Below are positions 15,606 through 64,000 of a stretch of 64,000 nucleotides of DNA, piece after piece; within the stretch, counting starts at the first letter, position 1, and each line of letters begins with the position of its first letter. Location: NCBI GenBank assembly GCA_024686085.1, contig JAIBDT010000004.1, positions 2,213 through 66,212 of the forward strand, given 5' to 3'. A program made the translations under genes and the position numbers. The notes under the pieces are model-generated. The model saw only the letters and a list, made by a program, of their open reading frames with translations. It did not search any database and was not told the DNA's origin. The stretch comes from Loktanella sp. GTDB taxonomy: Bacteria; Pseudomonadota; Alphaproteobacteria; Rhodobacterales; Rhodobacteraceae.

Positions 15606-17498
15606 CTACCCTTTTGCGTAGCCAAGCGGTTTAAGCGCCTCTTTGATCTCGTCCAAGACCTCAGGATCGTCGATGGTTGCGGGCATTTTGAAGGCCTCGC
15701 TATCGGCGATTTTGACCATTGTGGCGCGCAGGATCTTGCCTGAACGGGTTTTGGGCAGACGGTCCACAACGGCGACCAGCTTGAACGCAGCCACAGGGCC
15801 GATTTGGTCGCGCACCAATTTGATGCATTCGGCCTTGATCTCTTCGTCTGTCTTGGATGTGCCTTTGTTGGTGCACACAAAACCAAGCGGCAATTGCCCT
15901 TTGAGTTGGTCCGTCACCCCGATCACGGCACATTCGGCCACGTCTGGATGGCCTGCAAGCACTTCTTCCATGCCGCCCGTTGAGAGGCGGTGCCCTGCGA
16001 CGTTGATCACGTCGTCGGTCCGCGCCATGATGTAAAGGTAGCCGTCTTCGTCGATCATGCCCGCATCGCCAGTCTCGTAGTAGCCGGGGAAGGTGGTGAG
16101 ATAAGATTTCACAAAGCGGTCTTCGGCGTTCCAAAGGGTCGGCAATGTGCCAGGGGGCAGGGGCAGTTTGATCGCGATCGCGCCCAATTCGCCTGCTTTC
16201 ATCTGGTGACCTGCTTCGTCCAGGATTTGAACGTCGTAGCCCGGCATCGCGACAGTTGGCGAGCCAATTTTGACGGGCAAAGCCTCGATCCCCGCAGGGT
16301 TGCCTGCGATGGTGTAGCCGGTTTCTGTCTGCCACCAATGGTCATAGACAGGGACGCCCATGATTTTCTGCGCCCATTCGATGGTGTCCGGATCGGCCCG
16401 TTCGCCCGCGAGGTAAAGTGCGCGCAGGTTCGAGATGTCGTATTTCTTAATCTCTTCGCCCTTTGGGTCTTCGCGTTTGATCGCCCGCAGCGCGGTGGGT
16501 GCTGTAAAGAAGGACCGCACGTTGTGTTCTTGGATCACCCGCCAGAATGTGCCCGCGTCAGGTGTGCCGATGGGTTTGCCTTCAAACACGACTGTTGTGC
16601 AGCCCGCGATCAGTGGCCCGTAGCAGATGTAGGAGTGTCCAACGACCCAGCCCACGTCCGAGGCCGCCCAGAACACGTCGCCTTGATCTACGTTATAGAT
16701 GGATTTCATGGTCCAGTTGAGCGCAACAAGGTGGCCTGCGGTTGGCCGCACGACGCCTTTGGGCGCGCCTGTGGTGCCGGATGTATAAAGGACATATGTG
16801 GGGTGGTCGCCCGAAACAGGGACGCAGTCGGCAGGTGTCACGCCTGCCTGCACGTCGTTCCAGTCATAGTCGCGCCCGTCGGTCAGATCTGCGTCACATT
16901 CTTCGCGCTGGAAGATGATTGTGAAGTCTGGCTTATGCTTGGACTGTGAAATGGCGTCGTCGATCAATGGTTTATAGGCCACGACGCGGTTTGGCTCCAA
17001 CCCGCAAGAGGCTGCGAGGATGGCTTTTGGTGTTGCGTCTTCGATCCGCACGGCCAGTTCGTGTGCTGCAAAGCCGCCGAACACAACAGAGTGCACCGCG
17101 CCGATGCGCGCACAGGCCAGCATCGCGACAAGGGCTTCGCTGATCATTGGCATGTAGATGATGACGCGGTCGCCTGCGACGATGCCTTTGTCACGCAATG
17201 CACCTGCAAGGGATGCGGTCTGGGTTTGCAGTTCGGCAAAGCTGGTTTTGGATTTGCGCCCTGTGATCGGGCTGTCGTAGATGATTGCAGTCTGGTCGCC
17301 GCGCCCTTGCTCGACGTGGCGGTCCACGGCGTTGTAGCAAGCGTTGACCTGCGCATCTTTGTACCATTCGTAAAGCGGGGCGTTGTCGGCGTGCAGGGCT
17401 TTGGAGGGTGCTTTGACCCAATCGATTGCCTCTGCCTGCTTCATCCAGAATGCCTCTGGGTCGTCCTGCCAGCTTTTGTATACGTCGGAATAGCGCAT
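15606..17498 (-). CDS. prpE: propionyl-CoA synthetase
   Basis: YTSGTTGAPKG, DHWWQTETG, YYETGD, LPKTRSGKILR; PrpE-like N-terminus. Confidence 0.9.
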   Translation of the reverse strand: MRYSDVYKSWQDDPEAFWMKQAEAIDWVKAPSKALHADNAPLYEWYKDAQVNACYNAVDRHVEQGRGDQTAIIYDSPITGRKSKTSFAELQTQTASLAGALRDKGIVAGDRVIIYMPMISEALVAMLACARIGAVHSVVFGGFAAHELAVRIEDATPKAILAASCGLEPNRVVAYKPLIDDAISQSKHKPDFTIIFQREECDADLTDGRDYDWNDVQAGVTPADCVPVSGDHPTYVLYTSGTTGAPKGVVRPTAGHLVALNWTMKSIYNVDQGDVFWAASDVGWVVGHSYICYGPLIAGCTTVVFEGKPIGTPDAGTFWRVIQEHNVRSFFTAPTALRAIKREDPKGEEIKKYDISNLRALYLAGERADPDTIEWAQKIMGVPVYDHWWQTETGYTIAGNPAGIEALPVKIGSPTVAMPGYDVQILDEAGHQMKAGELGAIAIKLPLPPGTLPTLWNAEDRFVKSYLTTFPGYYETGDAGMIDEDGYLYIMARTDDVINVAGHRLSTGGMEEVLAGHPDVAECAVIGVTDQLKGQLPLGFVCTNKGTSKTDEEIKAECIKLVRDQIGPVAAFKLVAVVDRLPKTRSGKILRATMVKIADSEAFKMPATIDDPEVLDEIKEALKPLGYAKG

Positions 17499-17812
17499 CT
17501 TCATCCTCCCAAATGATCACTTGGTTAAGGTGTAAGCAGCGGATTTGGTGTGGGCAAGCGTGGTTGCGGCGCTAACAGGAAAACACTGTAAATTTTTTGA
17601 CATTGTTTTGCCTTTGTAGGGCAAGATGAGGCGCTGCCTTCAGACCTCTGAGGTGCTTTTGATCAAAAGAAGTGGGGTTTTGGGTAATTTTATTTTATAT
17701 CTTTGCTATTTTGCGCAATGACCGAAAATGCAAGTTGCTATCTTCGGGGTTAGGCGTAGGGTCCGCTTTACAGGACGACACTTCGCCGCCTCTGTTCGTT
17801 TGGAGATTTCTT

Positions 17813-49718: not shown

Positions 49719-51512
49719 ATGGCCAAGCCCCCAAGATTGAACGCCGAAGACCGTGCCACATCCAAAAATATTGGTGCGATGGGTCAACTTTGGCCGTTTG
49801 TCCGCCCCTACAAAAAGATGGTCACTTTGGCGTTAATCGCGCTGACGTTCACGGCAATGATATCGTTGGTGATGCCGCTGGCGGTCCGCCGCGTAATCGA
49901 CAACTTTGATGTCTCCGACGGGTCTGTTCTAGACAGTTACTTTGGCTTTGCCTTTGTGATTGCGGGACTTTTGGCCGTCGGCACAGCCCTGCGCTATTAT
50001 CTGGTGACCCGTTTGGGGGAACGCATTGTGGCCGACATTCGCGTGGCCGTGTTTGATCGTATGATTGGCATGTCGCCTGCGTTTTTTGAAAAAGTCATGA
50101 CGGGTGAGGTATTAAGCCGGATCACAACGGACACCACGCTGATCTTGTCCGTGATCGGGTCGTCCGTTTCGGTGGCCTTGCGCAATGTGTTGATCTTGTT
50201 TGGTGGCATTGGCTTGATGCTATGGACCTCTGTGAAGATGACAGGGCTGGTGTTGTGGCCGATCCCTGTTGTTCTGATCCCGATTATTCTGTTGGGCCGC
50301 CGTGTCCGCACATTAAGTCGCGAAAACCAAGACTGGATTGCCGCTTCGTCGGGTGATGCGTCAGAGCAGCTGTTGTCGGCGCAAACCGTGCAGGCCTTTA
50401 CCCACGAAAACCTGTCCCGCAAAAAGTTCTATGACGTGACCGAGAAAAGCTTTGTCGTTGCCAAACGCCGTATTGAGACCCGCGCCGTCATGACAGCGAT
50501 CGTGATTTTCATCGCGTTCTCGGCGGTTGTTGGGTTCTTGTGGATGGGTGCCGCAGACGTCCGTGCGGGTGTGATCAGCGTGGGCGAGTTGGTCCAGTTC
50601 ATGATTTACACGATTATGGTTGCAGGCGCTTTGGGTGCTTTGACCGAGATTTGGGGCGAATTGCAGCGCGCTGCCGGCGCGACCGAGCGGTTGGTCGAGT
50701 TGTTGCAAGCTGATGATGCGGTCAAAGATCCTGAAAATCCTGTCGCCGTACCTGACACGCAAGCCGCCGAGATTACGTTTGAGAATGTGACTTTTGCCTA
50801 TCCGGGGCGTCCGACGATCTCTGCGCTGGCCGAGGTAAGCTTGACCGTGAAACCTGGTGAAAGCGTCGCCCTTGTTGGCCCGTCAGGTGCGGGTAAGTCG
50901 ACGGTTATTCAATTGCTGCAGCGGTTCTATGACCCGCAAGAGGGTGCCATCAAGATCGATGGTGTTGATCTGCGTGACATGACCCGTTCTGATTTCCGCA
51001 AGCATGTCGCGCTTGTGCCGCAAGACCCTGTGATCTTTGCCGATACCGCCCGTGAAAACATTCGCTTTGGTCGCCCCGATGCGAGTAATGCCGAGGTCGA
51101 GGCCGCAGCCAAGGCCGCGGCGGCGCATGATTTCCTGATGGCGCTGCCCGAAGGCTATGACAGCCAAGTGGGCGAGCGTGGCGTGATGTTGTCGGGCGGT
51201 CAAAAGCAACGGATCGCAATTGCCCGCGCGATTCTGCGCGATGCGCCCATCTTGCTGTTGGACGAGGCGACGAGTGCGCTGGACGCTGAAAGCGAAAAGC
51301 TGGTGCAAACGGCTGTCGAGGACCTTGCCCGCACCCGTACAACGTTGATCGTGGCGCACCGTTTGGCGACAGTCAAACAGGCAGACCGGATTGTCGTGTT
51401 TGATGGCGGCCGTATCGTGGCCACGGGCACGCATGATGCATTGGTCGCTGAGGGTGGTCTGTATGCCCGTCTTGCGCGTTTGCAGTTTACCTCTGGGTTA
51501 GATGCCGAATGA
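49719..51512 (+). CDS. ABC exporter, fused permease/ATPase (MsbA-like)
   Basis: 6 TM segments, [28 protein letters not shown]-like VAHR switch. Confidence 0.95.
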   Translation: MAKPPRLNAEDRATSKNIGAMGQLWPFVRPYKKMVTLALIALTFTAMISLVMPLAVRRVIDNFDVSDGSVLDSYFGFAFVIAGLLAVGTALRYYLVTRLGERIVADIRVAVFDRMIGMSPAFFEKVMTGEVLSRITTDTTLILSVIGSSVSVALRNVLILFGGIGLMLWTSVKMTGLVLWPIPVVLIPIILLGRRVRTLSRENQDWIAASSGDASEQLLSAQTVQAFTHENLSRKKFYDVTEKSFVVAKRRIETRAVMTAIVIFIAFSAVVGFLWMGAADVRAGVISVGELVQFMIYTIMVAGALGALTEIWGELQRAAGATERLVELLQADDAVKDPENPVAVPDTQAAEITFENVTFAYPGRPTISALAEVSLTVKPGESVALVGPSGAGKSTVIQLLQRFYDPQEGAIKIDGVDLRDMTRSDFRKHVALVPQDPVIFADTARENIRFGRPDASNAEVEAAAKAAAAHDFLMALPEGYDSQVGERGVMLSGGQKQRIAIARAILRDAPILLLDEATSALDAESEKLVQTAVEDLARTRTTLIVAHRLATVKQADRIVVFDGGRIVATGTHDALVAEGGLYARLARLQFTSGLDAE

Positions 51513-51625
51513 TGCGGATTTTCGCAGCGTAACAGTTGCCAAGTCACAAGAATTTCAACAGTCTTGTCGTCGAAGTATCACGCGACACCTAAAGTTGCGG
51601 ACATCAATGCGGGGAGGAGACTTGC

Positions 51626-53530
51626 ATGACTTATGCGACAATGGCCGATCGGAATGCGATCGAGGGTGAAATGGCGTGGGACGAGCGCGATTTACCGAAA
51701 ACAACTTATCAAATGTTGACCCAAACGGCGGGCAAATTTGGCGACCGCAAAGCCGTCAGCTATCAGTTGATGTCGGACCCGGATGCGAAATGTGAAACAC
51801 TGACGTGGAACGAGTTCCATGCAAAGTCGACACAAACGGCAAACTTGTTGCGTAGTCTTGGCGTTGGCGAAACCGATGTGGTTGCCTATCTGATGCCGAA
51901 CGCGACCGAGACCGTGCTGACCTATATGGGCGGGCAAGTCGCAGGGATTGTGAACCCGATCAATCCTTTGCTTGACGCCGAGCAAATTGCCGCAATCTTG
52001 CGTGAAACCAACGCCAAAGTTCTGGTGACGCTGCGTGCTTTCCCAAAGACCGATGTTGCCCAGAAGGCCGCAGAAGCGGTTGCCTTGGCGCCGAATGTGC
52101 AGACCGTGCTTGAGGTTGATTTGCTTCGTTACCTGACGGGTATCAAAAAGCTGATCGTTCCGCTGATCCGCCCGAAGAACCCCGTCAAACATAATGCAAA
52201 GGTGATGGATTTTAACGCTGAAATCAACAAACAGCCCACCACGCTGGCGTTTGCCGACAGCGACGGCGACCGCGTTGCCGCTTATTTCCACACGGGCGGC
52301 ACGACGGGTATGCCAAAGGTCGCGCAGCACCGTTATTCGGGCATTATTTACAATGCTTGGCTGGGTGCGCGTCTTCTGTTTACCGAAAAAGATGTGCAGA
52401 TGTGCCCACTGCCAATGTTCCATGTTTTCGCGGCGATCGTGTCGTTGGGTGCATCGCTGGGATCTGGTGCGCAGATCGTGTTCCCGACCCCGCAAGGGTA
52501 CCGCGGCGATGGTGTTTTCGACAATTTTTGGAAGCTGATCGAACGTCACAAAGCTACCTTCATGATCACGGTGCCGACGGCGATGTCTGCGTTGATGCAG
52601 CGCAAGGTTGATGCGGATATCTCGACGTTACGTTTGGCATTTTGTGGCTCTGCGCCGCTGCCGCTGGAGCTATATCGTCGCTTTGAAGAAGCCGCTGGGC
52701 TAACCATTTGCGAAGGCTACGGCTTGACCGAGGCGACGTGCCTTGTGTCTATCAACCCGCCTGACGGTGAAAAGCGCGTTGGATCAATCGGGATTCCGTT
52801 CCCTTATACAGGTGTGCGAATTGTGAATGTTGCAACCCAACTTGATTGCGGTACAGACGAGATTGGCGAGATTTGCGTCGCCAGCCCCGGTGTCTACGAC
52901 GGCAAGACCTATACCGAAGCGGCAAAGAACAAAGACCTGTTTTACCCTGGTGAGGATTCGCCGCTGGGTGATACGGTGCAATATCTGCGCACGGGTGATT
53001 TGGGTCGCGTTGATGCTGATGGCTATTTGTGGATCACGGGCCGCGCGAAGGACCTGATCATTCGGGGCGGTCACAATATTGACCCTGCCGAGATCGAAGA
53101 AGCGCTTGCGGGCCACGAAGCTGTCGCCTTTGCGGGTGCTATTGGTCAACCTGATGCTCACGCGGGCGAGGTGCCTTGCGCCTATGTCGAACTGGTTGAC
53201 GGCGCCACGATCACCGTTGATGAACTGATGTCCTTCGCGAAGGACAAAATTCACGAACGTGCCGCCCATCCCAAGCATCTGGAAATCATGGACGAGCTGC
53301 CGAAAACCGCAGTCGGCAAGATTTTCAAACCTGATCTGCGTAAGAGTGCGATTACCCGCATCTATAACGAGGTCTTGGCGAAAGCGGGTGTTGCGGCCGA
53401 GGTATCGCTGGTGTCCGAGGACAAAAAGCGTGGCTTGGTTGCGCATTTGGTCAAGACGGGCGACGTGGATGATGGGGCGGTTTCCAATGCTTTGGGTGCG
53501 TTTACGTCCCCATGGGATTGGGCTGAGTGA
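51626..53530 (+). CDS. acyl-CoA synthetase (AMP-binding)
   Basis: FHTGGTTGMPK, GYGLTE, RTGDLG, PKTAVGK. Confidence 0.93.
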   Translation: MTYATMADRNAIEGEMAWDERDLPKTTYQMLTQTAGKFGDRKAVSYQLMSDPDAKCETLTWNEFHAKSTQTANLLRSLGVGETDVVAYLMPNATETVLTYMGGQVAGIVNPINPLLDAEQIAAILRETNAKVLVTLRAFPKTDVAQKAAEAVALAPNVQTVLEVDLLRYLTGIKKLIVPLIRPKNPVKHNAKVMDFNAEINKQPTTLAFADSDGDRVAAYFHTGGTTGMPKVAQHRYSGIIYNAWLGARLLFTEKDVQMCPLPMFHVFAAIVSLGASLGSGAQIVFPTPQGYRGDGVFDNFWKLIERHKATFMITVPTAMSALMQRKVDADISTLRLAFCGSAPLPLELYRRFEEAAGLTICEGYGLTEATCLVSINPPDGEKRVGSIGIPFPYTGVRIVNVATQLDCGTDEIGEICVASPGVYDGKTYTEAAKNKDLFYPGEDSPLGDTVQYLRTGDLGRVDADGYLWITGRAKDLIIRGGHNIDPAEIEEALAGHEAVAFAGAIGQPDAHAGEVPCAYVELVDGATITVDELMSFAKDKIHERAAHPKHLEIMDELPKTAVGKIFKPDLRKSAITRIYNEVLAKAGVAAEVSLVSEDKKRGLVAHLVKTGDVDDGAVSNALGAFTSPWDWAE

Positions 53531-53572
53531 TGAGAATTGGGGTGGCTTCTGTCACCCCTTTTTGGTGAGGCG

Positions 53573-54214
53573 ATGGACCCCAAAGTTGCAGCCCTGCTCG
53601 CTAAACCTCATTGGCACAATGAACGCAAAATCTTGCGCGACGTTTTGTTGGGCTGTGGCTTGACTGAAACCGTCAAATGGGACGGGCTTTGCTATACTTA
53701 CAATGATGCAAATATTGTGATGTTCTACGGGCTGAAGGCCTATTGCGGCCTTAGCTTTTTCAAAGGCGCCTTGATGAACGACCCTGAGGGGCTGTTGTAT
53801 CAACGGTCTGCGCAAATGCAGGCCGCGCGGCTGTATCGCTTTACCAGTCTGGACGAAGTCACCGCCGCGACCGCCCAAGTTAAGGCGTTTGTGGCCGATG
53901 CAATCGCGATCGAATTGGCGGGTCTCAAGGTTGAGATGACTGCCAAGGATGATTTGGTTTATCCTCAAGAATTGATCGACCGCATGGACGCGAACGACGC
54001 GTTCGCCGCTGCATTCGAGGCGCTGACCCAAGGCCGCAAGCGCGGCTATGTGCTGCATATCGCAGCCGCCAAACAGCCTGCCACACGTTTTGCCCGTATC
54101 GATAAATACGTCGCGCGCATTTTTGACGGCAAGGGCTTGTATGATTGCGTTTGCGGCTTGTCGAAAAAGCCGCCGCGCTGTGACGGTTCGCACAAGAGGT
54201 TAGATCGCTCTTAG
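53573..54214 (+). CDS. DUF1801/YdeI-OmpD-associated protein with C-terminal CDGSH motif
   Basis: ETVKW, FFKGAL, FEALTQGRKRGY, ending CVCGLSKKPPRCDGSHK. Confidence 0.85.
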   Translation: MDPKVAALLAKPHWHNERKILRDVLLGCGLTETVKWDGLCYTYNDANIVMFYGLKAYCGLSFFKGALMNDPEGLLYQRSAQMQAARLYRFTSLDEVTAATAQVKAFVADAIAIELAGLKVEMTAKDDLVYPQELIDRMDANDAFAAAFEALTQGRKRGYVLHIAAAKQPATRFARIDKYVARIFDGKGLYDCVCGLSKKPPRCDGSHKRLDRS

Positions 54215-54388
54215 TTTGGCTTTCGTGGCACACTATAAAAAATGCCCGCTGCTGCTAAGTTGATACACGATATACGGCATTGGCGCGTTGGTGGTGTCCA
54301 TGGTCAAGCGGCCAGCCACCACTGAGGTGGTCCGGCAAATTCGGACAGCGTGCTAAGATATATTCAACCCGAACGAATGAATACGAGA

Positions 54389-54682
54389 ATGACAAAACGA
54401 CGGAACTTTTCAGACCAGTTTAAGGCTGCTGTGGCGCTTGAGGCGCTGCGCGGTGACAAGACGGTTCAGGAGATTGCAGCCAAGCGCCAGCTCCACCCAA
54501 CGCAGGTGAGCACATGGAAACGTCAGGCTATCGAAGGCATGGCAGGCGGTTTCTCTGACAAGGTTAAAAAGGCTGAGAATAAGTACGGCGAGATCAAAGA
54601 GTTGCACGCCAAGATTGGTCAGCTGGCGGTGGAGAATGGTACGGGGGCTGACGCGGCCCCACTGGGGCCACGGTCCCCCTAG
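54389..54682 (+). pseudogene. IS3 OrfA (HTH), C-terminus disrupted by a hairpin insertion
   Basis: MTKRRNFSDQFKAAVAL...HPTQVSTWK...ELHAKIGQL then an aberrant tail. Confidence 0.85.
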
Positions 54683-54684
54683 CC
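54638..54684. repeat. 47-bp hairpin insertion 1 in the IS (GGCCCC-ACT-GGGGCC core)
   Basis: GGTACGGGGGCTGACGCGGCCCCACTGGGGCCACGGTCCCCCTAGCC at the orfA/orfB junction. Confidence 0.75.
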
Positions 54685-54734
54685 TTGTCACAAGGGCTAA
54701 AGCGGTGAGTCCATCAAAACGCCGCGAGATGATC

Positions 54735-54773
54735 TGTCACCTGGCAGTCGATCCTTCGGGATCGATGAGAGGG
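54735..54773 (+). mobile_element. 39-bp miniature hairpin element, copy A (in frame)
   Basis: TGTCACCTGGCAG-TCGATCC TTCG GGATCGA-TGAGAGGG between EMI and RKDN. Confidence 0.8.
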
Positions 54774-55043
54774 CGCAAAGATAATATAAAACTGAGCCTG
54801 ACGCGCCAGTGTAAGCTGCTCAAGATCAGCCGTTCGTCGATCTATTACACACCAGTTGGGGTGAATGCTGAGACACTTGCGCTGATGCATGAGATTGATC
54901 GGGTGTTCACCAAATACCCGTTCTTCGGAAGCCGCCAGATCGCTGCTTACCTTCCTCAGTCGGGCTTCTCATCGGGGCGGCATCGTGTTCGACGCCTGAT
55001 GAACCTTATGGGGTTGCAGGTCATCTACAAGGGGCCGAACACC

Positions 55044-55084
55044 CGCTGACCGGCAATGGTTTGCAAGTAAACCATGAGAGAGGG
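55044..55084 (+). mobile_element. 41-bp miniature hairpin element, copy B (stop plus frameshift)
   Basis: CGCTGACCGGCAA-TGGTTTGC AA GTAAACCA-TGAGAGAGGG between PNT and KKHP. Confidence 0.8.
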
Positions 55085-55114
55085 GGCAAGAAGCACCCAC
55101 AGCACCGCATTTAT

Positions 55115-55156
55115 CGCTCGCCATTGTGCTTTAACCAATGGCGCACAAAAGCTCGC
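55115..55156. repeat. 42-bp hairpin insertion 4 in the IS (in frame)
   Basis: CGCCATTG-9nt-CAATGGCG; adds RSPLCFNQWRTKAR between RIY and LLRK. Confidence 0.7.
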
Positions 55157-55483
55157 CTGCTGAGGAAGCTCGCAATCACGCGGCCCAATCGGGTTTGGTG
55201 CCGCGACATCACCTACATCCCCGTTAAAAGTGGCTTTCTGTATCTGGTCGCAATCATGGATTGGGCGACCCGCAGGGTGCTGTCCTGGCGGCTTTCCAAT
55301 ACGCTTGATGCCAGCTTCTGTGTGGAGGCTTTGGAGGAGGCAATCGCCCGATATGTCAAGCCAGAGATAATGAATGCGGACCAAGGCAGCCAATATACAG
55401 GCGCTGGCTGGATCACGACTTTGACCAACGCTGACATCAAAATCTCAATGGACGGGCGGGGCCGCTATTTGGACAATATCTTC

Positions 55484-55522
55484 CCCTCTCATCGTTTGCA
55501 GGCAAACGACTGCCGGGCAGTG
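55484..55522 (-). mobile_element. 39-bp miniature hairpin element, copy C (reverse orientation, in frame)
   Basis: Reverse complement CACTGCCCGGCAG-TCGTTTGC CT GCAAACGA-TGAGAGGG between DNIF and IERLW. Confidence 0.85.
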
Positions 55523-55953
55523 ATCGAACGGTTGTGGCGGTCGCTGAAGCAAGAGGCCGTTTACCTGCATAAAATCACCGACGGCTTCCAAGCGGAACGG
55601 ATTATCAATAACTGGATTGGGTTCTATAACGCGGAGCGCCCTCACACGGCCCTTGATAAGCGCACTCCGGACATCGCGTACTTCGGCCAAGCGGAGACAC
55701 GAAAAGCGGCATGAACACACACCAGATGCAACTTAGCCAAGCCGCAAAACTGTCCTAAAAAGCAGGAACACTTCACTTGACCAACTTCTCCCAATGTTGG
55801 GGTGCGGCTATTCGTGCGGTGCGCCGCATTTTGTCGGCAAAAACATCGCTATGCGAGACCAAGCAGCCGTCTGCCGCAGCGTAGAATTTCCGCAAAATCC
55901 AAGACTACTCGACATTCGATAGTCTTTGTAAGAGAGGCCCAGCCAGAAAGGGT

Positions 55954-57090
55954 CTATCCGGCATAAATACGGTGGTTTCTGAGGCCCCAGTCAGCAAAAA
56001 CATCCGCCATGATCGTATTAGCCTGATGTTCCATTGACGTGTTATCAATGCGCGCAGTGCCTTGCTGGCCAAACACAACGACCTCGTCCCCGATACTGAT
56101 TTCGGGCACATCAGTGACGTCGGCGGTTATGGTGTTCATAGATATTTTGCCCAGAACAGGCACCCTTTGTCCCCGGATCAACACAGCGCTTTGATCGAAA
56201 AAGTCACGCCTGATCCCGTTTGCGTATCCAATCGAAATATTGGCGATACGCCTGTCGTCTTGCAGAATAGTTGCGCGATCATAGCCAATGGTGCTGTCTT
56301 TGGGGTAAGTTGCCAGATTGGTTACCCGCGACTTCAATTCCATTGTTGGCTGGAAGCCGAGGTCTTGACTTACAATTCCATACAGAATTGCGCCGCAGCG
56401 AAATAACTCTGTTGTCACCTCTTGTTCGGACACGAGACTAAGCGAGCTTCCCGCATGCACCTTCACATCTGCGCGGCGCAATGCGCTGTGGGCAAAAATC
56501 CAATCCACATCTTTTTGAAATTGTGCGTTACTTGCGGCGAGGTCGTGCGGGGTATTCGACGGAAAATGGCTGCAAATCCCCACGATTTGCGGGCCGATAA
56601 GGTCAAGGATTTCAAGACAAGCTTTCTGTCCTTCCTTTGTTGACAGCTCAAGCCCGTCGCGCGACATGCCGCCCGCATTGATCGTGAGATGGACACCCTC
56701 AATTTGGGTGCCTTTGCGCGTCAACTCTTTTACTGTTCGCGCCGTATAGAGCGAGCCTACCTGCTCTTGGATCTGATCGGGCAATGCACCTACGATTTCG
56801 CGGCTCGTGGCTGTCCGTATCCGCATTATCGTCCCTGCAAAACCAGCATTGCGGACGGCCCTTGCTTCTGAGTTGGAGGTAACGCCCACATACTGAACGC
56901 CCAAATCGCGGATGATCGGCACGACCCTGTCAATCCCATGCCCGTAGGCATCGGCTTTTAATACGGCCAGTAGTTGGGCCCCTTCTGGTAGAAGACCCTG
57001 TGCAAGTTTGAGGTTGTCTGCGATCCGCGCGGGAAAAACCTCGCACCAAGAGGCGTGCTCAATATCGGTGGAGATTTGGTTATCCCGCAT
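55954..57090 (-). CDS. alanine racemase-fold PLP enzyme, broad-spectrum racemase-like
   Basis: VLKADAYGHG, RCGAILYG, GYDR, SIGYANG, GKISMN. Confidence 0.88.
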   Translation of the reverse strand: MRDNQISTDIEHASWCEVFPARIADNLKLAQGLLPEGAQLLAVLKADAYGHGIDRVVPIIRDLGVQYVGVTSNSEARAVRNAGFAGTIMRIRTATSREIVGALPDQIQEQVGSLYTARTVKELTRKGTQIEGVHLTINAGGMSRDGLELSTKEGQKACLEILDLIGPQIVGICSHFPSNTPHDLAASNAQFQKDVDWIFAHSALRRADVKVHAGSSLSLVSEQEVTTELFRCGAILYGIVSQDLGFQPTMELKSRVTNLATYPKDSTIGYDRATILQDDRRIANISIGYANGIRRDFFDQSAVLIRGQRVPVLGKISMNTITADVTDVPEISIGDEVVVFGQQGTARIDNTSMEHQANTIMADVFADWGLRNHRIYAG

Positions 57091-58231
57091 GCGCTGACAG
57101 AATGTGTGCGATGACGGTTAAGAAAAGATCTGCGCCGAGCGGCAACAGTGCATCGGGGAAATCGTAGTCAGGATTATGCAACTGTGGCTGGGATTCACCC
57201 GCACCCAGAAACATCATCGTCGCACGAGCCCCATCCAGACCGAAACGCCCGAAGTCTTCGGACCACCGCATCGGATGATCCATTTCGTGAATGCTGAGCC
57301 CTTGTGCATGGGCGGCTTGGCGCGCGATGTCAGTAGCCCCGATATCATTGACGACCGTCGAGAATACGTCATGCCAGTTCACGGCGACCTCAAGCCGCTC
57401 ATCAATTTGCCCGACAATGGCCTGCGTTTCATGGATTAAGCTTTCCATACGCGTATCGGTCATACAGCGCAAAGTAACGCGCAGCTCACCTTCGCCCGGC
57501 GCAATGCCAAACGTCGGCGCACCGAGCCGCACGTGCGTCAAGGTGCTGAGGCCAAAATCGGCATCCCGAATGGTGCCTGCACTCAGCGCTGGTAGATGTT
57601 GCATCAAATGAGCCATTGCAGCACCGGGTGAAACGCCATCTTCGGGTGCGGCGGCATGGGAGCTTTTTCCGTGCAACAGGATTTGCATCCCCCGAGACGC
57701 GCAATTGGCAGGTCCTGCCCGCAATCCGACTTCACCCAGAGGGCGACCGGGCACGTTATGGTAGGCGAATGCATAATCTGGGCGGATCTCGGGCCATCTG
57801 GGATCATCAATCACTGCCTGCGCCCCAAATCCCGTCTCTTCAGCCGGCTGAAACAGCAAGATGACCCGCCCGCGCGCAGGCCGCTTTGCCAATCCCAGTG
57901 CAACCCCCATCACCATGCACATATGTCCGTCATGACCACAAAGATGGCCTTTGCCTTCGACCTCAGAGCGATAGGGGAGGGTGGATTCTTCCTTGATTGG
58001 CAATCCGTCGAGTTCGCAGCGGATCAGCACGGTCGGCCCCGGCTTTGTGCCGCGAAACTCGGCTGCGACACCGTAACCGCCTAGGTTTTGCCAAATCTGG
58101 TCAGCGCCCGCGCGTGTCAGTTCTTGGACAATTCGGGCGGCTGTCTGCGCTTCTTCACCCGAGATTTCCGGCTGGCGGTGCAAATCGTGCCGTAGCTGCG
58201 TCAGATAGGTCGTTTGTTCACTGGATATCAT
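57080..58231 (-). CDS. M20D family amidohydrolase
   Basis: LHRQPEISG, RCELDGLP, HLCGHDGH, FQPAEETG, SEDFG, QLHNPDY. Confidence 0.92.
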   Translation of the reverse strand: MISSEQTTYLTQLRHDLHRQPEISGEEAQTAARIVQELTRAGADQIWQNLGGYGVAAEFRGTKPGPTVLIRCELDGLPIKEESTLPYRSEVEGKGHLCGHDGHMCMVMGVALGLAKRPARGRVILLFQPAEETGFGAQAVIDDPRWPEIRPDYAFAYHNVPGRPLGEVGLRAGPANCASRGMQILLHGKSSHAAAPEDGVSPGAAMAHLMQHLPALSAGTIRDADFGLSTLTHVRLGAPTFGIAPGEGELRVTLRCMTDTRMESLIHETQAIVGQIDERLEVAVNWHDVFSTVVNDIGATDIARQAAHAQGLSIHEMDHPMRWSEDFGRFGLDGARATMMFLGAGESQPQLHNPDYDFPDALLPLGADLFLTVIAHILSAHAG

Positions 58232-58235
58232 GTGT

Positions 58236-59267
58236 TCACAAAGCCTCCTGATATCCTGCAAGAACGCGGGTCAGGTTGATTCCAAGCGTGTCGGAGAGGT
58301 ATCCGCCTTCTTGCACAAAAAGCACGGGGATCTTCAGCCCCGTCATGGCAGCGCCAATAGCGGCAAACCCGTCCTGCGTGACGGCAAATCCTTGGAACGG
58401 ATCATCAATGGAGGCATCCAACCCAAGTGCCACGACCAGCACATCTGCGCCAAAATTTGAAACCTGTGCCAGCGCTGTATCAAGTGTTTTCAAAAACACC
58501 TCATCGCCTGTGCCACGCGGCAGTGGCAGATTGAGATTATAGCCCAGACCGCGCCCTTCGCCGTGTTCTTGGCCATACCCCCAAAAGAACGGATAGAACC
58601 GTTCTGGGTCCGCATGAATGGAAACCGTGAGCACGTCGTCACGGTCATAAAAGATGCCTTGTGTCCCGTTGCCGTGATGCACATCCACGTCCAGAATCGC
58701 AGGGCGCAATCCGCTGCTGCGCAACCGCTCTGCCGCGATGGCCGCGTTGTTCAGGAAGCAAAACCCACCCGCCAAATCACCAAACGCATGATGTCCTGGC
58801 GGGCGCGAAAGCACATAAGCGCCTTGTTCGCCGCCGGCTATCAAATCCGCGCCAGTAATGGCCGATTGCGCGGACCAATAGGCCGCCTCCCATGTGCCTT
58901 TGGCGATTGGACAGGCGGTATCGGCCTGATGAAAGCCCGATTGGCCAGTTGCGGATTTCGGATATCCGTCGGTGCGGCGCGCCGGATGAATGTTGGGGAT
59001 CACCTCGTCGCCCGCGCCGTCGATCCACTGCCACCTCTTATAGATGTTTTTCAAAAACGTCAGATATTGAGGGGAATGGAGCGCCGCGATCGGGCCGAGC
59101 CCTGCATCAAGAGGGGCCTGAAACTTGCAGCCCGCAGCTTGCGCGCCCCCGCGCAGGACTTCGATACGGCGCGGTTGCTCTGGATTGGGCAGGATATTTC
59201 CGTTCGCCATGAAGTGTTTGGGATCATGCGCCCATTGTCGGTCGTCAAATACGGCTTTCATCGTCAT
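58236..59267 (-). CDS. HDAC-family / acetylpolyamine amidohydrolase-like deacetylase
   Basis: RPPGHHA, GFCFLNN, DVDVHHGNG, QEGGY. Confidence 0.93.
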   Translation of the reverse strand: MTMKAVFDDRQWAHDPKHFMANGNILPNPEQPRRIEVLRGGAQAAGCKFQAPLDAGLGPIAALHSPQYLTFLKNIYKRWQWIDGAGDEVIPNIHPARRTDGYPKSATGQSGFHQADTACPIAKGTWEAAYWSAQSAITGADLIAGGEQGAYVLSRPPGHHAFGDLAGGFCFLNNAAIAAERLRSSGLRPAILDVDVHHGNGTQGIFYDRDDVLTVSIHADPERFYPFFWGYGQEHGEGRGLGYNLNLPLPRGTGDEVFLKTLDTALAQVSNFGADVLVVALGLDASIDDPFQGFAVTQDGFAAIGAAMTGLKIPVLFVQEGGYLSDTLGINLTRVLAGYQEAL

Positions 59268-59295
59268 CCCTTACGTGTGGTGCTAAGCTTGAATC

Positions 59296-59351
59296 GTGGC
59301 GCGGTCCGCGCCCTTGCTAAATTGTGGCGCGGTCCGCGCCCTTGCTAAATT
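59296..59351. repeat. exact 28-bp tandem duplication containing a GC hairpin
   Basis: GTGGCGCGGTCCGCGCCCTTGCTAAATT x2. Confidence 0.95.
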
Positions 59352-60271
59352 GTCGTACGGTCTGCGCCCTTGAGGCCCAGCATCTTGCGCGCTTCGGTCG
59401 GCGTTGCGACCTCACGACCAAGATCTTCGACAATACGGCGGATTTTCCGAACCTGCTCTGCGTTGGTTTTGGCGAGCTGTCCGCGCGCGATCATCAAACT
59501 GTCTTCAAGTCCGACCCGTACGTGGCCGCCCATCGCGGCCGACATGGTGACCAGTGGCATCTGATGTCGGCCTGCTGCCAGCACCGAGAACATATAATCG
59601 TCGCCAAACAGCTTGTCGGCGATGACCTTCATATGCATCAGGTTCTCGGGGTCCGGCCCCATGCCACCCAGAACGCCGAATACAAACTGAATGAACAAGG
59701 GCCCCTTTATGAGCCCGCGATCGACAAAATGTTTCAGCATATAAAGGTGGCTGATATCGTAGCATTCAAACTCGAACCGTGCGCCGCGGTCCTGGCCCAT
59801 TTCGGTCAAAATGCGGACCATATCGCGGGGGGTGTTCTTGAAGACGAGGTCATCGGAATTTTCCAGAAACGGCTTTTCCCAGTCGAATTTCCAGTCCGTA
59901 ATCCGTTCCGCCGCTTGGTAGAGCGCGAAATTCATCGTGCCCATATTGAGGCTGCACATTTCAGGCTCGGCGCGTTTGGGGGCGGCGAGCCGCTGATCGA
60001 GGGTCATCACCGCGCTGCCGCCCGTGGAGATATTCAAGATCGCATCGGTCGCTTGGTTTAACCTTGGCAAGAACGCCATGAAATCTGCGGCGTCCGATGA
60101 GGGTTGGCCGGTTTTTGGATTGCGCGCATGCAGGTGCAAAATTGCGGCGCCAGCTTCGGCCGCACCTATCCCATGTTCGGTTATTTCATCAGGCGTGATC
60201 GGAAGATAGGGCGACATAGAGGGTGTATGAATTGACCCCGTAATGGCGCATGTGATGAGAATTGCAGACAT
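59345..60271 (-). CDS. beta-keto acid cleavage enzyme (BKACE/Kce, DUF849)
   Basis: ITCAITG, ILHLHAR, SLNMG, FECYD, HVRVGLED. Confidence 0.93.
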   Translation of the reverse strand: MSAILITCAITGSIHTPSMSPYLPITPDEITEHGIGAAEAGAAILHLHARNPKTGQPSSDAADFMAFLPRLNQATDAILNISTGGSAVMTLDQRLAAPKRAEPEMCSLNMGTMNFALYQAAERITDWKFDWEKPFLENSDDLVFKNTPRDMVRILTEMGQDRGARFEFECYDISHLYMLKHFVDRGLIKGPLFIQFVFGVLGGMGPDPENLMHMKVIADKLFGDDYMFSVLAAGRHQMPLVTMSAAMGGHVRVGLEDSLMIARGQLAKTNAEQVRKIRRIVEDLGREVATPTEARKMLGLKGADRTTI

Positions 60272-60272
60272 A

Positions 60273-61610
60273 TTAACCCGCCTTCATTTGCATGTGAATA
60301 TATCGCGTAAATTCGACCAAGGTCGCATCCAGCCCCGTGATGATTTCGTCAATATGATCGTTATCGACAATGAGGGGGGGGCAAACCAGAATATGATCAC
60401 CGGCGACACCATCCCGCGTGCGTCGTGAATAGACGATCAGCCCACGCTCATAAGCCATATCGACAAATTTTTGATGCGCATTCAGATGCGGCGGCAGTGG
60501 TTCTTTGCTATCGCGGTCCGCCATGAATTCAAACGCCGTGAGCAGACCTTTGCCGCGCACATCGCCGATAAGTTCATGCTTTTGCATCAGGCCATGCAGC
60601 CTTGCGATCAGCTTATCACCCATCCGTGCGGCATTGTCGCAGAGGTTTTGCGCTTCGATTTCTTCCACGACAGCCAAACCTGCGGCGCAAGCAAGCGGAT
60701 TGCCAGCATAGGTAAACCCATGTGCGAATCCACCGTGATCCATCACAGCGTTCACGATATTTTCGTCCGCAATGACGGCACCAAGCGGCACGTAGCCCGC
60801 CCCAAGGCCCTTGGACAACGCGACAATATCAGGGCGCGCGGGCCAGTGCTCGCATCCCAAGAATTTGCCCGTCCTGCCTGCACCTGTCATCACCTCATCG
60901 AGGATCAACAGCACGCCATATTGGTCACAAATCGCGCGAATACGTTCCATGTAGCCCGCGGGCGGTACCAGCGCACCGGTCGAGGCTCCGCCGATAGGTT
61001 CCACGAGAAAGGCCAATACAGTTTCCGTCCCTTCATGCAGAATTTGCGCCTCTAGCATATCGGCATAATGGGCGCCTGTTGCCGGATCATTCGGGTCAAG
61101 CCCGTCCAGATATGCACGGGGTGCCGGAATTTTCGGCATCTCTTGCATCATCGGCGCGAAGGGAGTGGTCAAGCTCGCGAAGCCCGTAACCGCCAGCGCA
61201 CCGAGGGTGCACCCGTGATAGCTGGGGCTGCGCGAAATTACTTTCCAACGTGTCGTGTTATCGGTCGCAATCGCATATTGGCGCGCCAGTTTCATCGCGC
61301 TTTCAACGGCCTCGGACCCGCCTGACACAAAGAACACCTTGTTGAGACCTTCGGGCATCAACCCCGCCAGTTTTGCTGCAAGCGCCTCTGATGCCTCGGT
61401 CTCAAAATGCAAGCGGTAGCCAAAGGTGGATTTCTCCATCTGGTGCTGCATCGCCGCCAAGACCTGCGGGTTGGAATGGCCGATATTGCACACCATCGCG
61501 CCTGAAGAGCCGTCGAGATAACGCTTGCCGTCCTGATCCCACATGTAAACGCCACGTGCGCGGTCGAGCATGGGTCTTTTGTTGCCTGACTGATAGAAAA
61601 GGTTGCTCAT
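60273..61610 (-). CDS. class III PLP aminotransferase
   Basis: YLDGSSG, SGGSEAVE, SYHG, LILDEVMTG, ALSKGLG, HGFTY. Confidence 0.94.
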   Translation of the reverse strand: MSNLFYQSGNKRPMLDRARGVYMWDQDGKRYLDGSSGAMVCNIGHSNPQVLAAMQHQMEKSTFGYRLHFETEASEALAAKLAGLMPEGLNKVFFVSGGSEAVESAMKLARQYAIATDNTTRWKVISRSPSYHGCTLGALAVTGFASLTTPFAPMMQEMPKIPAPRAYLDGLDPNDPATGAHYADMLEAQILHEGTETVLAFLVEPIGGASTGALVPPAGYMERIRAICDQYGVLLILDEVMTGAGRTGKFLGCEHWPARPDIVALSKGLGAGYVPLGAVIADENIVNAVMDHGGFAHGFTYAGNPLACAAGLAVVEEIEAQNLCDNAARMGDKLIARLHGLMQKHELIGDVRGKGLLTAFEFMADRDSKEPLPPHLNAHQKFVDMAYERGLIVYSRRTRDGVAGDHILVCPPLIVDNDHIDEIITGLDATLVEFTRYIHMQMKAG

Positions 61611-61734
61611 CTTTGCTCCTGAACGCAAAACGCATAGCGCGCATGAATTGCCTTCACACGCCTTGATAAAACCATGGAAGAAACGCTATTATATATCAAA
61701 TAAATAGCTTCAATTCCAAATATAGGAATTTCCT

Positions 61735-62703
61735 ATGATCCGCAAAACGCCGCAATTTGAGCCAGAACGCATTGCGCGGGAGCTGGATTGGAACCTGCTT
61801 CGAACCTTTGTCGTGCTCGCAGAAAGCCGTTCGGTGACGGATGCTGCAAGCAAGCTTCGCCTCAAACAACCAACAGTTTCCACGGCACTCAAGCGGTTGG
61901 AAAGCACCATTGGACGCAAGTTGATTATCCGGTCGCCCGGGCAATATGTGCTGACAGATGCGGGACGGATTTTGTACCGCGAGGCGCTTGAAATCCACGG
62001 TTCAGTGCTGCGCCTTTCGACCTTGATGCGTGAAATGACCGATGATGTGCGGGGCCATATCCAGATTTCGGTGGCCAGCCATGTGTCGTGCAAGTTGATC
62101 GACAGGGTGCTCGCAGAGTTCCACGCGGCCCACCCGAAGGTGACCATGGATATCGAGGTGCAATCGAGCGCAAAGGCCATAGCTGCGGTTGTTGCAAAAC
62201 GCGCGTCATTCGCGATTTGCCTTGTGGGGACGCAATCGCCCAGCATTGAATATCGTCAGGTATATCGTGAGTTCTTCGGGTTGTTTTGTGGCCCGCCGCA
62301 TCCGTTGTTTGGTCGCGAAGACTTACAGCTGGAAGATTTGGCCGGACATGGCTCGGTGAGCTTTGAAACCGACCATTTGGAGGATGTTCTCAAGCCCGTG
62401 ACCTTGTTGCGCGCGCGGGCGGCATTGGAGCAAAAGGTCACCGGCGTTTCAAGCCATCTGGAGGAAGTGCGCCGCATGGTTGTTGCGGGGCTTGGTGTCG
62501 GTCCGTTGCCCGTGCATGTGGCCGCGCGCGATGTCAAAGATGGCCAACTTTGGCAGGTCCCGCCCTATGAGGGGCTTCCTGCGATTGATGTTTTCCTGGT
62601 GTGGAACAACCGCGCCAACAAGAACCGCGCCGAAGAGTTTCTGCTCAAGGATTTGCTTGAGGCAATCGAGACGACGCCATTGGAGGCACGCACGTATTCC
62701 TGA
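61735..62703 (+). CDS. LysR-family regulator, divergent from the catabolic genes
   Basis: DWNLLRTF...SVTDAA..L...QPTVS HTH plus substrate-binding domain. Confidence 0.95.
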   Translation: MIRKTPQFEPERIARELDWNLLRTFVVLAESRSVTDAASKLRLKQPTVSTALKRLESTIGRKLIIRSPGQYVLTDAGRILYREALEIHGSVLRLSTLMREMTDDVRGHIQISVASHVSCKLIDRVLAEFHAAHPKVTMDIEVQSSAKAIAAVVAKRASFAICLVGTQSPSIEYRQVYREFFGLFCGPPHPLFGREDLQLEDLAGHGSVSFETDHLEDVLKPVTLLRARAALEQKVTGVSSHLEEVRRMVVAGLGVGPLPVHVAARDVKDGQLWQVPPYEGLPAIDVFLVWNNRANKNRAEEFLLKDLLEAIETTPLEARTYS

Positions 62704-62708
62704 CGGGT

Positions 62709-63503
62709 TTAGCGGTGCTGACCCGCGAGGTGTTTGCGCAAAAATTCTTTCGTGCGGTCATTTTTCGGATTGCGGAACATAACTTCTGGCGGACCTTCTT
62801 CGACCACCACCCCTTGATCCATAAACAAAACCCGATCGCAAACACTCTCGGCAAAGCTCATTTCATGGGTCACGATGATCATGGTCATATGCTCTTCCGC
62901 CAGCTTTTTCATCACGAGGTTCACCTCTTCCACCAGTTCGGGATCGAGGGCAGAGGTGGCTTCGTCAAACAGCATCACTTTGGGGTTCATCGCCAGTGCG
63001 CGCGCAATCGCGACACGCTGCTTTTGCCCGCCTGAAAGCTGCGAGGGGTAATAATCTATCCGCTCTAGCATGCCGACCTTATCAAGCTGCTCTTCGGCCA
63101 GTTTGTTGGCGTCAGCATCCGAAAGCCCCTTTAGCATTTTTGGGGCAAGCGTCACATTTCCACGCACTGTCAGATGTGGAAAGAGGTTGAAATGTTGAAA
63201 CACCATGCCAATTTCTTGACGCACCAAGTTGATGTGCTTCTCATATTGGCGATGAGGCAGATTTTTGTTGATCTGCTTATCCTCCAGCCAGATTTCGCCA
63301 CCAGTCAACGGGTCCAGATCATTGATTGCGCGCAAGAGCGTGCTTTTCCCCGATCCTGAAGGACCGATAATTGCGACGATCTGCCCTTTCTGCACCTGAA
63401 GATTGATATCCTTAAGAACCTCCAACGCGCCGTAGCTTTTCTGCGCATGCTGGATATCTACAAATGGCTTTTGATCGGTCATGTGATCCCCTTGATCATT
63501 CAT
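62709..63503 (-). CDS. polar amino-acid ABC transporter ATPase
   Basis: [37 protein letters not shown]. Confidence 0.95.
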
Positions 63504-64000
63504 CGTGAAGCCTGAACACGTCGTTCAACGCGACGTTGCGCCGCTTCCATGAAGAGGTTGATGATATAGTAAATGACGGCCACCAGAACGTAGAACTCGA
63601 ATGGTCGGTAAGTGCTGCCGATGGCGCGCTGTGCTGAAAGCGTAAGTTCGGACACCCCGATCACAGAGACCAAGGCGCTATCTTTCAAAAGGGCAATCAT
63701 GTTGTTGCCAACGGGTGGAATGACATCGCGAATGGCTTGCGGGACCACAACTTTTCGCAGCGCTTGCATGCGGCCAAGCCCGAGAGTGCGGGCCGCTTCG
63801 ATCTGTCCTTTGTCCACCGCCAGAATGCCGGTCTGAAACAGCTCGGAATTATAAACGGCGAAGTGTAAGCCAAGCCCGATGATCCCAGCCATGACGGCGG
63901 GCACGTCGATGCCCACTTGCACAAGGCCGAAATAGATCAAAAACAGCTGCAACAGCAGGGGCGTGCCCATGAATAGAAACGCAAATGCGCGAAACGGCAG
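63500..64000 (-). CDS. polar amino-acid ABC transporter permease, partial (starts beyond window)
   Basis: [12 protein letters not shown] loop [17 protein letters not shown]. Confidence 0.93.

Follow-up and report, generated by a model that had tools for sequence, protein, structure and literature searches.

A locus of a Loktanella genome as a candidate for the uptake and catabolism of an N-acetylated basic beta-amino acid

Analysing a 64,000-nucleotide stretch of a Loktanella sp. genome (Rhodobacterales; GenBank assembly GCA_024686085.1, contig JAIBDT010000004.1), hereafter the window, which corresponds to C101:2213-66212 of a 3.0 Mb and 91% complete genome, we characterized a set of five tightly packed minus-strand genes encoding a class III aminotransferase, a BKACE (beta-keto acid cleavage enzyme), a deacetylase of the acetylpolyamine amidohydrolase (APAH) type, an M20D amidohydrolase and an amino-acid racemase, accompanied by a divergent LysR-type regulator and an ABC importer. 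Deduced from protein families and synteny, these genes would constitute a LysR-controlled locus for the uptake and catabolism of an exogenous N-acetylated basic beta-amino acid, with N-epsilon-acetyl-beta-lysine as the best candidate, a reading that we hold to be about evenly balanced. The succession aminotransferase-BKACE-deacetylase, conserved well beyond this genome, forms the core of the proposed system, and the M20D-racemase pair appears as an accessory to it.

Domain searches recovered every element named in the original prediction, namely the five co-oriented and closely spaced enzyme genes, the divergent lysR gene and the polar amino-acid ABC system. The enzyme operon opens with the gene of the class III (omega/beta-amine) aminotransferase (60273-61610, minus strand; 445 aa; Pfam Aminotran_3, 352 bits), the start of which was refined to the ATG at 61610 with its GGAG ribosome-binding site. 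A single nucleotide separates it from the BKACE gene (59345-60271, minus strand; Pfam BKACE, 365 bits), to which it is translationally coupled. The gene of the zinc deacetylase, of histone deacetylase (HDAC) fold, follows (58236-59267, minus strand; 343 aa; Pfam Hist_deacetyl, 227 bits), and then that of the M20D amidohydrolase (57080-58231, minus strand; Pfam Peptidase_M20 and M20_dimer; NCBIfam TIGR01891, 203 bits), whose start was refined to the ATG at 58231, 4 nt past the deacetylase stop and with a GGAGG ribosome-binding site; the resulting length of 383 aa agrees with that of its homologs (383-385 aa). The last gene of the operon, encoding the racemase (55954-57090, minus strand; 378 aa; Ala_racemase_N and Ala_racemase_C domains), overlaps the end of the M20D gene by 11 nt.

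The proposed route would begin with the uptake of the compound through the ABC importer and its periplasmic binding protein. The aminotransferase would then turn its 3-amino group into a ketone, giving 3-keto-6-acetamidohexanoate, which the BKACE would condense with acetyl-CoA to produce acetoacetate and 4-acetamidobutyryl-CoA. Finally, the APAH-type deacetylase would remove the acetyl group, yielding 4-aminobutyrate and acetate, and a gabT/gabD-like pair encoded elsewhere in the genome could take 4-aminobutyrate to succinate. A succinate-semialdehyde dehydrogenase gene, above the cut-off of its model, stands beside an aminotransferase paralog on contig C108, so 4-aminobutyrate should be usable by this bacterium. 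Two considerations define the class of substrate: a beta-amino acid is expected because the BKACE needs a beta-keto acid and the aminotransferase is operon-linked to it, and the second amino group should be masked during the pathway since an acetyltransferase and a deacetylase are conserved in the gene sets described below. Our confidence in the mechanism is about one half, and that in N-acetyl-beta-lysine itself is lower.

The same order of chemistry, i.e. an acetyl-protected omega-amine, transamination at C3, acetyl-CoA-dependent cleavage and deacetylation, is found in the L-beta-lysine pathway of Pseudomonas B4, which the Barker laboratory (1979-81) reportedly resolved into N6-acetylation, transamination (EC 2.6.1.65), acetyl-CoA-dependent cleavage and a deacetylase-thiolesterase reaction (EC 3.5.1.51) leading to 4-aminobutyrate. 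Its intermediates are said to be N6-acetyl-beta-lysine, 3-keto-6-acetamidohexanoate, then 4-acetamidobutyryl-CoA released with acetoacetate, before 4-aminobutyrate (GABA) is formed. The deacetylase purified in that laboratory reportedly hydrolysed the thioester as well, and the cluster, in which no thioesterase gene is present, fits such a bifunctional deacetylase-thiolesterase. No gene assignment for this pathway was found in the literature searched. The four enzyme types of Pseudomonas B4 are all encoded in many related clusters, whereas the copy of the window comes without the acetyltransferase and adds the M20D-racemase pair and a dedicated ABC importer to the scheme. With a confidence of about one half, we regard the locus as a variant, devoid of GNAT acetyltransferase and bearing the M20D-racemase pair, of a widespread gene set for this old beta-lysine pathway, unpublished as such.

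The conservation of the core was examined on 80 BKACE-anchored loci, with one genome per species and each locus scored for ten proteins, and on 301 genera sampled evenly and without bias across the family, in which deacetylase orthologs were defined by at least 54% identity. The nearest public relative of the locus belongs to a Yoonia metagenome-assembled genome (MAG). The aminotransferase-BKACE-deacetylase order recurred in ~25 of the 80 loci, mostly from Rhodobacterales, with further cases in Hoeflea, Tepidamorphus and other Hyphomicrobiales. Across the family sample, deacetylase orthologs were present in 55 genera, 35 of which carried them within 1.8 kb of a BKACE ortholog; six of these 35 pairs abut as they do in the window, and the other 29 are spaced for a gene of ~150 aa. 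In many of the relatives examined, a GNAT acetyltransferase of 150-160 aa indeed lies between BKACE and deacetylase, thereby completing the Pseudomonas B4 beta-lysine enzyme set. Such an arrangement is far beyond chance, and the objection that these genes might not be conserved together in other genomes does not hold for the core. Two unrelated importer types serve it, the polar-amino-acid type of the window and a PotABCD-like type, and several loci of the latter type add a FAD oxidoreductase of the DAO family and a RidA protein. Five other loci (L029, L041, L038, L021 and L073, with the BKACE at ~10001 in each) display a BKACE-GNAT-deacetylase succession without aminotransferase. In L041, it adjoins a 671-aa oxidoreductase combining OYE-like FMN and FAD/NAD(P) parts in an architecture reminiscent of trimethylamine dehydrogenase, with a clustered homolog in L029; this enzyme may replace the transaminase in the loci without aminotransferase.

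The assignment of the BKACE to a subfamily sharpens this picture. The protein matches Pfam PF05853 over profile positions 2-274 of 274 (364.7 bits, cut-off 24.8), passes the NCBIfam equivalog NF053538, named "3,5-dioxohexanoate:acetyl-CoA acetone transferase" (506.8 bits, cut-off 430), and fails the Kce equivalog NF052387 (239.5 bits, cut-off 382). It carries the H46-L-H48 and GLEDS motifs; by analogy with the Kce structure, the H-x-H and a downstream glutamate are assumed to be zinc-binding positions. With Kce of lysine fermentation it shares fold and family, the zinc H-x-H motif and an acetyl-CoA-dependent type of cleavage giving acetoacetate. Unlike the context of Kce, the cluster of the window includes neither aminomutases nor a dehydrogenase, and the predicted substrate is neutral (acetamido) instead of a free amine. 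The best solved relatives are 3e02, 3e49 and BKACE15 of Paracoccus denitrificans (8rio, 381 bits over a full-length alignment), and the sequence places the enzyme in the neutral-substrate group of the family. According to the published account, the substrates of BKACE15 are neutral C5-C6 beta-keto acids, and its relatives accept C6 substrates substituted at C5, such as 3,5-dioxohexanoate and 5-hydroxy-beta-ketohexanoate. The enzyme is a candidate for the cleavage of 3-keto-6-acetamidohexanoate.

A maximum-likelihood tree of 81 BKACEs gathered, in a 33-member clade with support of 100/99, solely enzymes with an aminotransferase, GNAT or deacetylase neighbour, including that of the window; one BKACE so linked, from Mesorhizobium, fell outside the clade and no unlinked BKACE fell inside. 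BKACE15 itself is tied to a context of aromatic degradation, and the BKACE of the window, although it passes the NF053538 cut-off, sits in this separate clade. Because of this position, and of the aminotransferase, GNAT and deacetylase neighbours, the name of the equivalog is probably too specific for the context-defined clade, for which the same function appears doubtful. Automatic annotation with NCBIfam would attach that name to the gene at 59345-60271. A phloroglucinol or triacetate pathway, as the name might suggest, was supported by none of the gene contexts examined. The genome also holds two BKACE paralogs, one on contig C39 (C39:31199-32065; 39% identity to that of the window) and one directly beside another class III aminotransferase gene (C107:13165-15523), with which it makes up a second aminotransferase-BKACE pair.

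The best NCBIfam matches of the aminotransferase, PRK07483 and PRK06917, both remain under their cut-offs, its best solved structure is 3i4j, and polyamine and putrescine transaminases are among its solved relatives. Its orthologs (64-88% identity) precede a BKACE in the ~25 core loci and form one family in the tree. From this company, we consider it a candidate N6-acetyl-beta-lysine transaminase (EC 2.6.1.65), an activity for which no reference sequence exists.

The deacetylase is closest, among solved structures, to acetylpolyamine amidohydrolases (3men, 9gkz, 6phr and 3q9b; 260-304 bits), including those of Mycoplana ramosa, Marinobacter subterrani and Burkholderia pseudomallei. Aligned with 3q9b and 3men, it keeps all the catalytic and zinc motifs of the HDAC fold (RPPGHHA, DVDVHHGNGTQ, LGLD and EGGY). 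At the positions of E17, E106 and E117, the polyamine-binding glutamates of the M. ramosa enzyme, it has F, T and A, substitutions that fit a substrate other than a polyamine without proving it. Its gene context points away from a polyamine and towards 4-acetamidobutyryl-CoA or 4-acetamidobutyrate, and the protein is proposed as a candidate deacetylase of 4-acetamidobutyryl-CoA (EC 3.5.1.51) or of 4-acetamidobutyrate. In two further loci (L105 7838-10372 and L087 979-3927), the deacetylase forms its own three-gene unit with a DAO-family oxidoreductase and RidA, accompanied by a LysR gene in L105 and lying opposite an aminotransferase-importer-M20D operon in Neptunomonas; this composition suggests that the flavoenzyme oxidises the product of the deacetylase.

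A second line of evidence for a beta-keto acid intermediate came from a commoner architecture, reached through the M20D gene, in which the importer of the window (74-82% identity) and a member of its aminotransferase family (64% identity) are combined with subunits A and B of a 3-oxoacid CoA-transferase, a deacylase of the ArgE/DapE type and often a thiolase. The classical substitute for a BKACE in the splitting of beta-keto acids is a CoA-transferase acting with a thiolase, and this version of the cluster therefore looks like a second way to cleave the beta-keto acid and then remove the N-acyl group. It was found in Ruegeria pomeroyi (GCA_021405525.1), in seven of the nine genera bearing the racemase, in Hoeflea, where a GNAT is present, and in Reinekea. 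The NCBIfam models for the aminotransferase and for the ArgE-like deacylase each exceeded their cut-off in exactly one control genome, with no indication of which. A hybrid locus (L107; G002:C29:20000-39999) brings together LysR, a Pot-type importer, the aminotransferase, a GNAT, CoA-transferase A and B, an ArgE-like deacylase, an HDAC-type deacetylase, a DAO-type oxidoreductase and RidA; since it contains both deacylases, the one is no simple replacement of the other.

This version of the cluster resembles the kamA-yodPQRST sporulation operon of Bacillus subtilis, which joins YodT, the 3-oxoacid CoA-transferase YodS/R, the ArgE-like deacylase YodQ and the GNAT YodP to KamA, a lysine 2,3-aminomutase, a likeness of composition. 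KamA makes beta-lysine, and yodP with kamA make N-epsilon-acetyl-beta-lysine; kamA (BSU19690) and yodT (BSU19740) are both SigE-dependent, and yodQ and yodS adjoin kamA. YodT is listed as a class III aminotransferase of unknown function in a 2019 survey, with 3I4J as its best structure, which is the best structure for the aminotransferase of the window too. The two systems differ in that the B. subtilis operon makes beta-lysine internally from lysine, has no importer and uses a CoA-transferase, whereas the locus of the window has an importer and a BKACE.

No such internal supply was detected in the Loktanella genome. Neither a KamA-family aminomutase (lysine 2,3-aminomutase) nor, in the operon or anywhere else in this 91%-complete genome, an ortholog of the cluster GNAT was found, which implies that the substrate must be imported and fits the dedicated importers. 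The locus thus probably takes up a compound that is already acetylated. The family sample holds KamA-family genes in 29 genera, where they never adjoin the cluster, and no more than three of the 35 genomes with the cluster contain any; an endogenous supply of beta-lysine was therefore discarded.

The claim that the enzymes have an ABC importer of their own stands in so far as all four components are present, in the order binding protein, permease, permease and ATPase. The ATPase gene (62709-63503, minus strand; ABC_tran domain; polar amino acid type) and the 3' part of one permease gene (63500-64000, minus strand; BPD_transp_1 domain), which runs past the end of the window, are followed, in the extension of the contig just beyond, by the second permease and a binding protein of the SBP_bac_3 family (L005 8713-11015). 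These genes constitute a separate minus-strand transcription unit converging on the 3' end of lysR, outside the enzyme operon, and to that extent the importer is not part of it. None of the components reaches the cut-off of a curated equivalog: the nearest models of the ATPase are EhuA, GlnQ and TcyN, and that of the binding protein, which begins with a Tat/Sec-like signal peptide (MMTTRRTLL...ATA), is the lysine/arginine/ornithine model TIGR01096 (161 bits). The ATPase is 80-94% identical in flavour B loci, i.e. the CoA-transferase version, and in flavour C loci.

The regulator (61735-62703, plus strand; 322 aa; Pfam HTH_1 and LysR_substrate) is divergent from the aminotransferase gene across a control region of 124 bp (61611-61734), and in most loci the cluster comes with an ortholog of it (41-92% identity). 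Read directly, this spacer shows two conserved dyads, AATTCC-N7-GGAATT (61712-61730) and GCTAT-N14-ATAGC (61685-61708), together with a sigma-70-like site (61663-61692), and its lysR-proximal 80 bp are nearly invariant in four genera (that of the window, Yoonia, Sulfitobacter and Pelagimonas). We infer from these features that the dyads are putative LysR binding sites.

The M20D-racemase pair follows a different distribution. The best solved structure for the M20D protein is YxeP of B. subtilis (1ysj). The closest solved relatives of the racemase, among them Alr of Pseudomonas putida (4dyj), BsrV of Vibrio cholerae (4beu) and Lyr of Proteus mirabilis (4dza), share its two-domain fold; its matches to solved racemases of broad or lysine specificity (4dyj, 4bf5, 4dza and 4beu) reach 250-275 bits, compared with 136 bits for an alanine racemase. 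Its match to PRK13340 stays under the cut-off (320 bits, cut-off 434). No signal peptide was found in the racemase, its match beginning at profile position 40 and near residue 43 of the PDB chains and its N-terminus being hydrophilic, whereas the characterised Bsr and Lyr racemases presumably carry an N-terminal export signal and are periplasmic. As this signal is missing, the enzyme is predicted to be cytoplasmic, with a broad spectrum of the Lys/Arg type. Most likely, the M20D protein hydrolyses an N-acyl amino acid and the racemase racemises the basic alpha-amino acid thereby released, an addition that would broaden what the shared importer and regulator feed into metabolism.

The two genes occur in only nine of the 301 genera, the racemase always standing beside M20D in that sample, and they are absent from most clusters carrying the aminotransferase-BKACE-deacetylase core. 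The pairing was seen in loci L006, L011, L089, L086, L090-L097, L099 and L117. In the loci examined, the racemase always adjoins an importer and usually the M20D hydrolase as well; the pair, or the racemase alone, also stands in loci that hold, besides it, only a TRAP transporter and a LysR gene, and in Reinekea it lies in an importer operon apart from the aminotransferase operon. In Terasakiella pusilla (L119 10001-14211), the genes of a TRAP transporter and of a racemase homolog (54% identity) converge on those of a deacetylase of the HDAC type, a guanidino-modifying DDAH-like enzyme and an ornithine cyclodeaminase, a set resembling a route that leads to proline from D/L-arginine or acetyl-ornithine. 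This pattern of occurrence marks the M20D-racemase pair as a separable and mobile two-gene module, accessory to the core. Consequently, the idea that an N-acetylated beta-amino or diamino acid is transaminated, cleaved and deacylated is retained for the three-gene core with its importer and regulator, where synteny, the GNAT and the CoA-transferase version argue for it, and abandoned in the form of a single conserved pathway of five enzymes. The comparative tests also agree with N-epsilon-acetyl-beta-lysine, initially named as one candidate, a substrate that we infer.

Several observations nevertheless weigh against the assignment of the locus to N-epsilon-acetyl-beta-lysine. The M20D-racemase pair travels with the aminotransferase and the importer in many genera; this recurring tie is real, and no part in the breakdown of beta-lysine is evident for a racemase of basic alpha-amino acids, so that the true substrate could be a different or a conjugated compound, for which this tie is the main reason to keep sizeable odds. 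The assignment itself comes from chemical logic and synteny, and the copy of the window, in which the acetyltransferase is missing, would agree with the Barker scheme only for a compound acetylated before uptake. [quoted passage not shown] Moreover, deacetylase orthologs are also encountered alone or with a DAO-type oxidoreductase and RidA, which means that this enzyme is not dedicated to the beta-lysine route. Finally, for the acetoacetate formed, neither an acetoacetyl-CoA synthetase above cut-off nor a clear 3-oxoacid CoA-transferase was found in the 91%-complete genome. An acyl-CoA synthetase-like frame with a weak acetoacetyl-CoA synthetase match (204 bits) and one in-frame TGA is present at C101:17857-19734 (~15645-17522 of the window).

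The alternative that survives best, unlikely though still a serious contender, keeps the same chemistry and changes the substrate, which would be another beta,omega-diamino acid or N-acylated beta-amino acid, e.g. N-acetyl-3,5-diaminohexanoate, a compound of the beta-ornithine or 3,4-diaminobutyrate type, or a beta-lysine conjugate first released by M20D. All the evidence for transamination, cleavage and deacylation fits it equally well, the acceptance of C5-substituted C6 compounds by relatives of the BKACE is compatible with it, and that the M20D protein and the racemase constantly accompany flavours B and C suggests that the natural substrate has an additional amide bond and an alpha stereocentre. 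Against it, we know of no such compound as a common environmental solute, and in B. subtilis the operon that has this enzyme set includes a lysine 2,3-aminomutase, which points back to beta-lysine.

An improbable explanation is that two unrelated units were fused by chance, with the M20D protein, the racemase and the importer serving a pathway for lysine, ornithine or arginine in an N-acyl or D-form, in which the aminotransferase would be the omega-aminotransferase of that amino acid, and with the BKACE and deacetylase inserted later for a different job. The Lys/Arg type of the racemase, its occurrence with TRAP importers alone and its arginine/ornithine-type neighbours in Terasakiella are in line with such a history, as is a near gene-for-gene equivalent of the locus in Sulfitobacter undariae, which retains the importer (binding protein, 86% identity), LysR (88%), the aminotransferase (85%), M20D (76%) and the racemase (70%) without BKACE or deacetylase. 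In the tree, however, the S. undariae aminotransferase is nested in the BKACE-linked clade as sister to those of the window and Yoonia, making the loss of BKACE and deacetylase the simpler reading. The aminotransferase and BKACE genes, only 1 nt apart here, are furthermore adjacent in ~25 loci mostly devoid of M20D or racemase, and flavour B places a 3-oxoacid CoA-transferase and a thiolase after the aminotransferase, which again implies a beta-keto acid product.

Acetylpolyamine catabolism, with the deacetylase as a true APAH, the aminotransferase as a polyamine transaminase and the BKACE in an unrelated step, is very improbable: the structural relatives of the first two enzymes and the Pot-type importer of many related clusters speak for it, but polyamine transamination gives aldehydes, which would leave the coupled BKACE, or the CoA-transferase and thiolase, without substrate, and the three polyamine-binding glutamates are replaced. 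A beta-leucine route of valine-leucine interconversion, in which the aminotransferase would form beta-ketoisocaproate and the BKACE isobutyryl-CoA and acetoacetate, can be set aside as scarcely credible, since it matches the neutral-substrate group of the BKACE and the reading "conversion from valine to leucine" given to a BKACE context with class III aminotransferase, acetylpolyamine amidohydrolase and acetyltransferase in supplementary Table S1 of the NetSyn preprint, but leaves the conserved acetyltransferase and deacetylase without a role, accords poorly with importers of the basic-amino-acid and polyamine types, and finds no leucine 2,3-aminomutase in the cluster.

Returning to the N-acetylated beta-amino acid, a broader proposal can be formulated, which we advance tentatively and rate as somewhat more prone to fail than to hold. 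The operon and its relatives, present in about one in eight genera of the Rhodobacteraceae sample, would hold the genes so far lacking for the aerobic pathway of beta-lysine / N-epsilon-acetyl-beta-lysine, with the BKACE clade as 3-keto-6-acetamidohexanoate cleavage enzyme, the aminotransferase as EC 2.6.1.65 and the APAH-like protein as EC 3.5.1.51. Marine roseobacters would accordingly scavenge this osmolyte through two interchangeable importers and two cleavage solutions, the M20D-racemase add-on handling N-acyl or D-forms of related basic amino acids. If true, this would provide genes for three enzyme activities described 45 years ago, none of which has been assigned in the literature found, correct the likely over-specific name carried by the whole BKACE clade, and reveal a marine turnover route for acetylated diamino-acid osmolytes. 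It would also illustrate modular pathway evolution, in which one aminotransferase family is associated with two importer types, two modes of beta-keto acid cleavage and three unrelated deacylases. The cluster is present in several cultured type strains; its carriers in culture include Pelagimonas varians DSM 23678, with the architecture of the window, and Pseudorhodobacter aquimaris KCTC 23043 and Marinibacterium profundimaris, whose versions have the GNAT.

The surroundings of the locus delimit it on both sides. Downstream, a degenerate element of the IS3 family (54350-55714, plus strand), made of fragments with HTH_Tnp_1, HTH_21 and rve domains, marks the boundary of the cluster and is outside the catabolic system. 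Next to it (49719-54214) lie three genes unrelated to the cluster, for an MsbA-related ABC exporter (857 bits to TIGR02204), a PRK07529-type acyl-CoA synthetase (51626-53530; 851 bits) and a protein of DUF1801/OmdA type whose tail is CDGSH-like; none has a counterpart in the related loci, and the acyl-CoA synthetase and DUF1801 genes, considered as cluster members, were rejected on this ground. The other flank carries rlmF, then a cyanophycinase/cyanophycin synthetase set at L005 13009-18471, ~3.8-9.3 kb past the end of the window, composed of a cyanophycinase, a cyanophycin synthetase of full length (1132 bits) and another CphA-like ligase, shorter (579 aa) and restricted to the Mur-ligase half. 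A link with cyanophycin, in which beta-Asp-Arg would be the substrate of M20D, was dismissed, as the closest relative, the Yoonia MAG (L006), shows no ORF (open reading frame) of ~900 aa upstream of the binding-protein gene, the ORFs being judged by their size.

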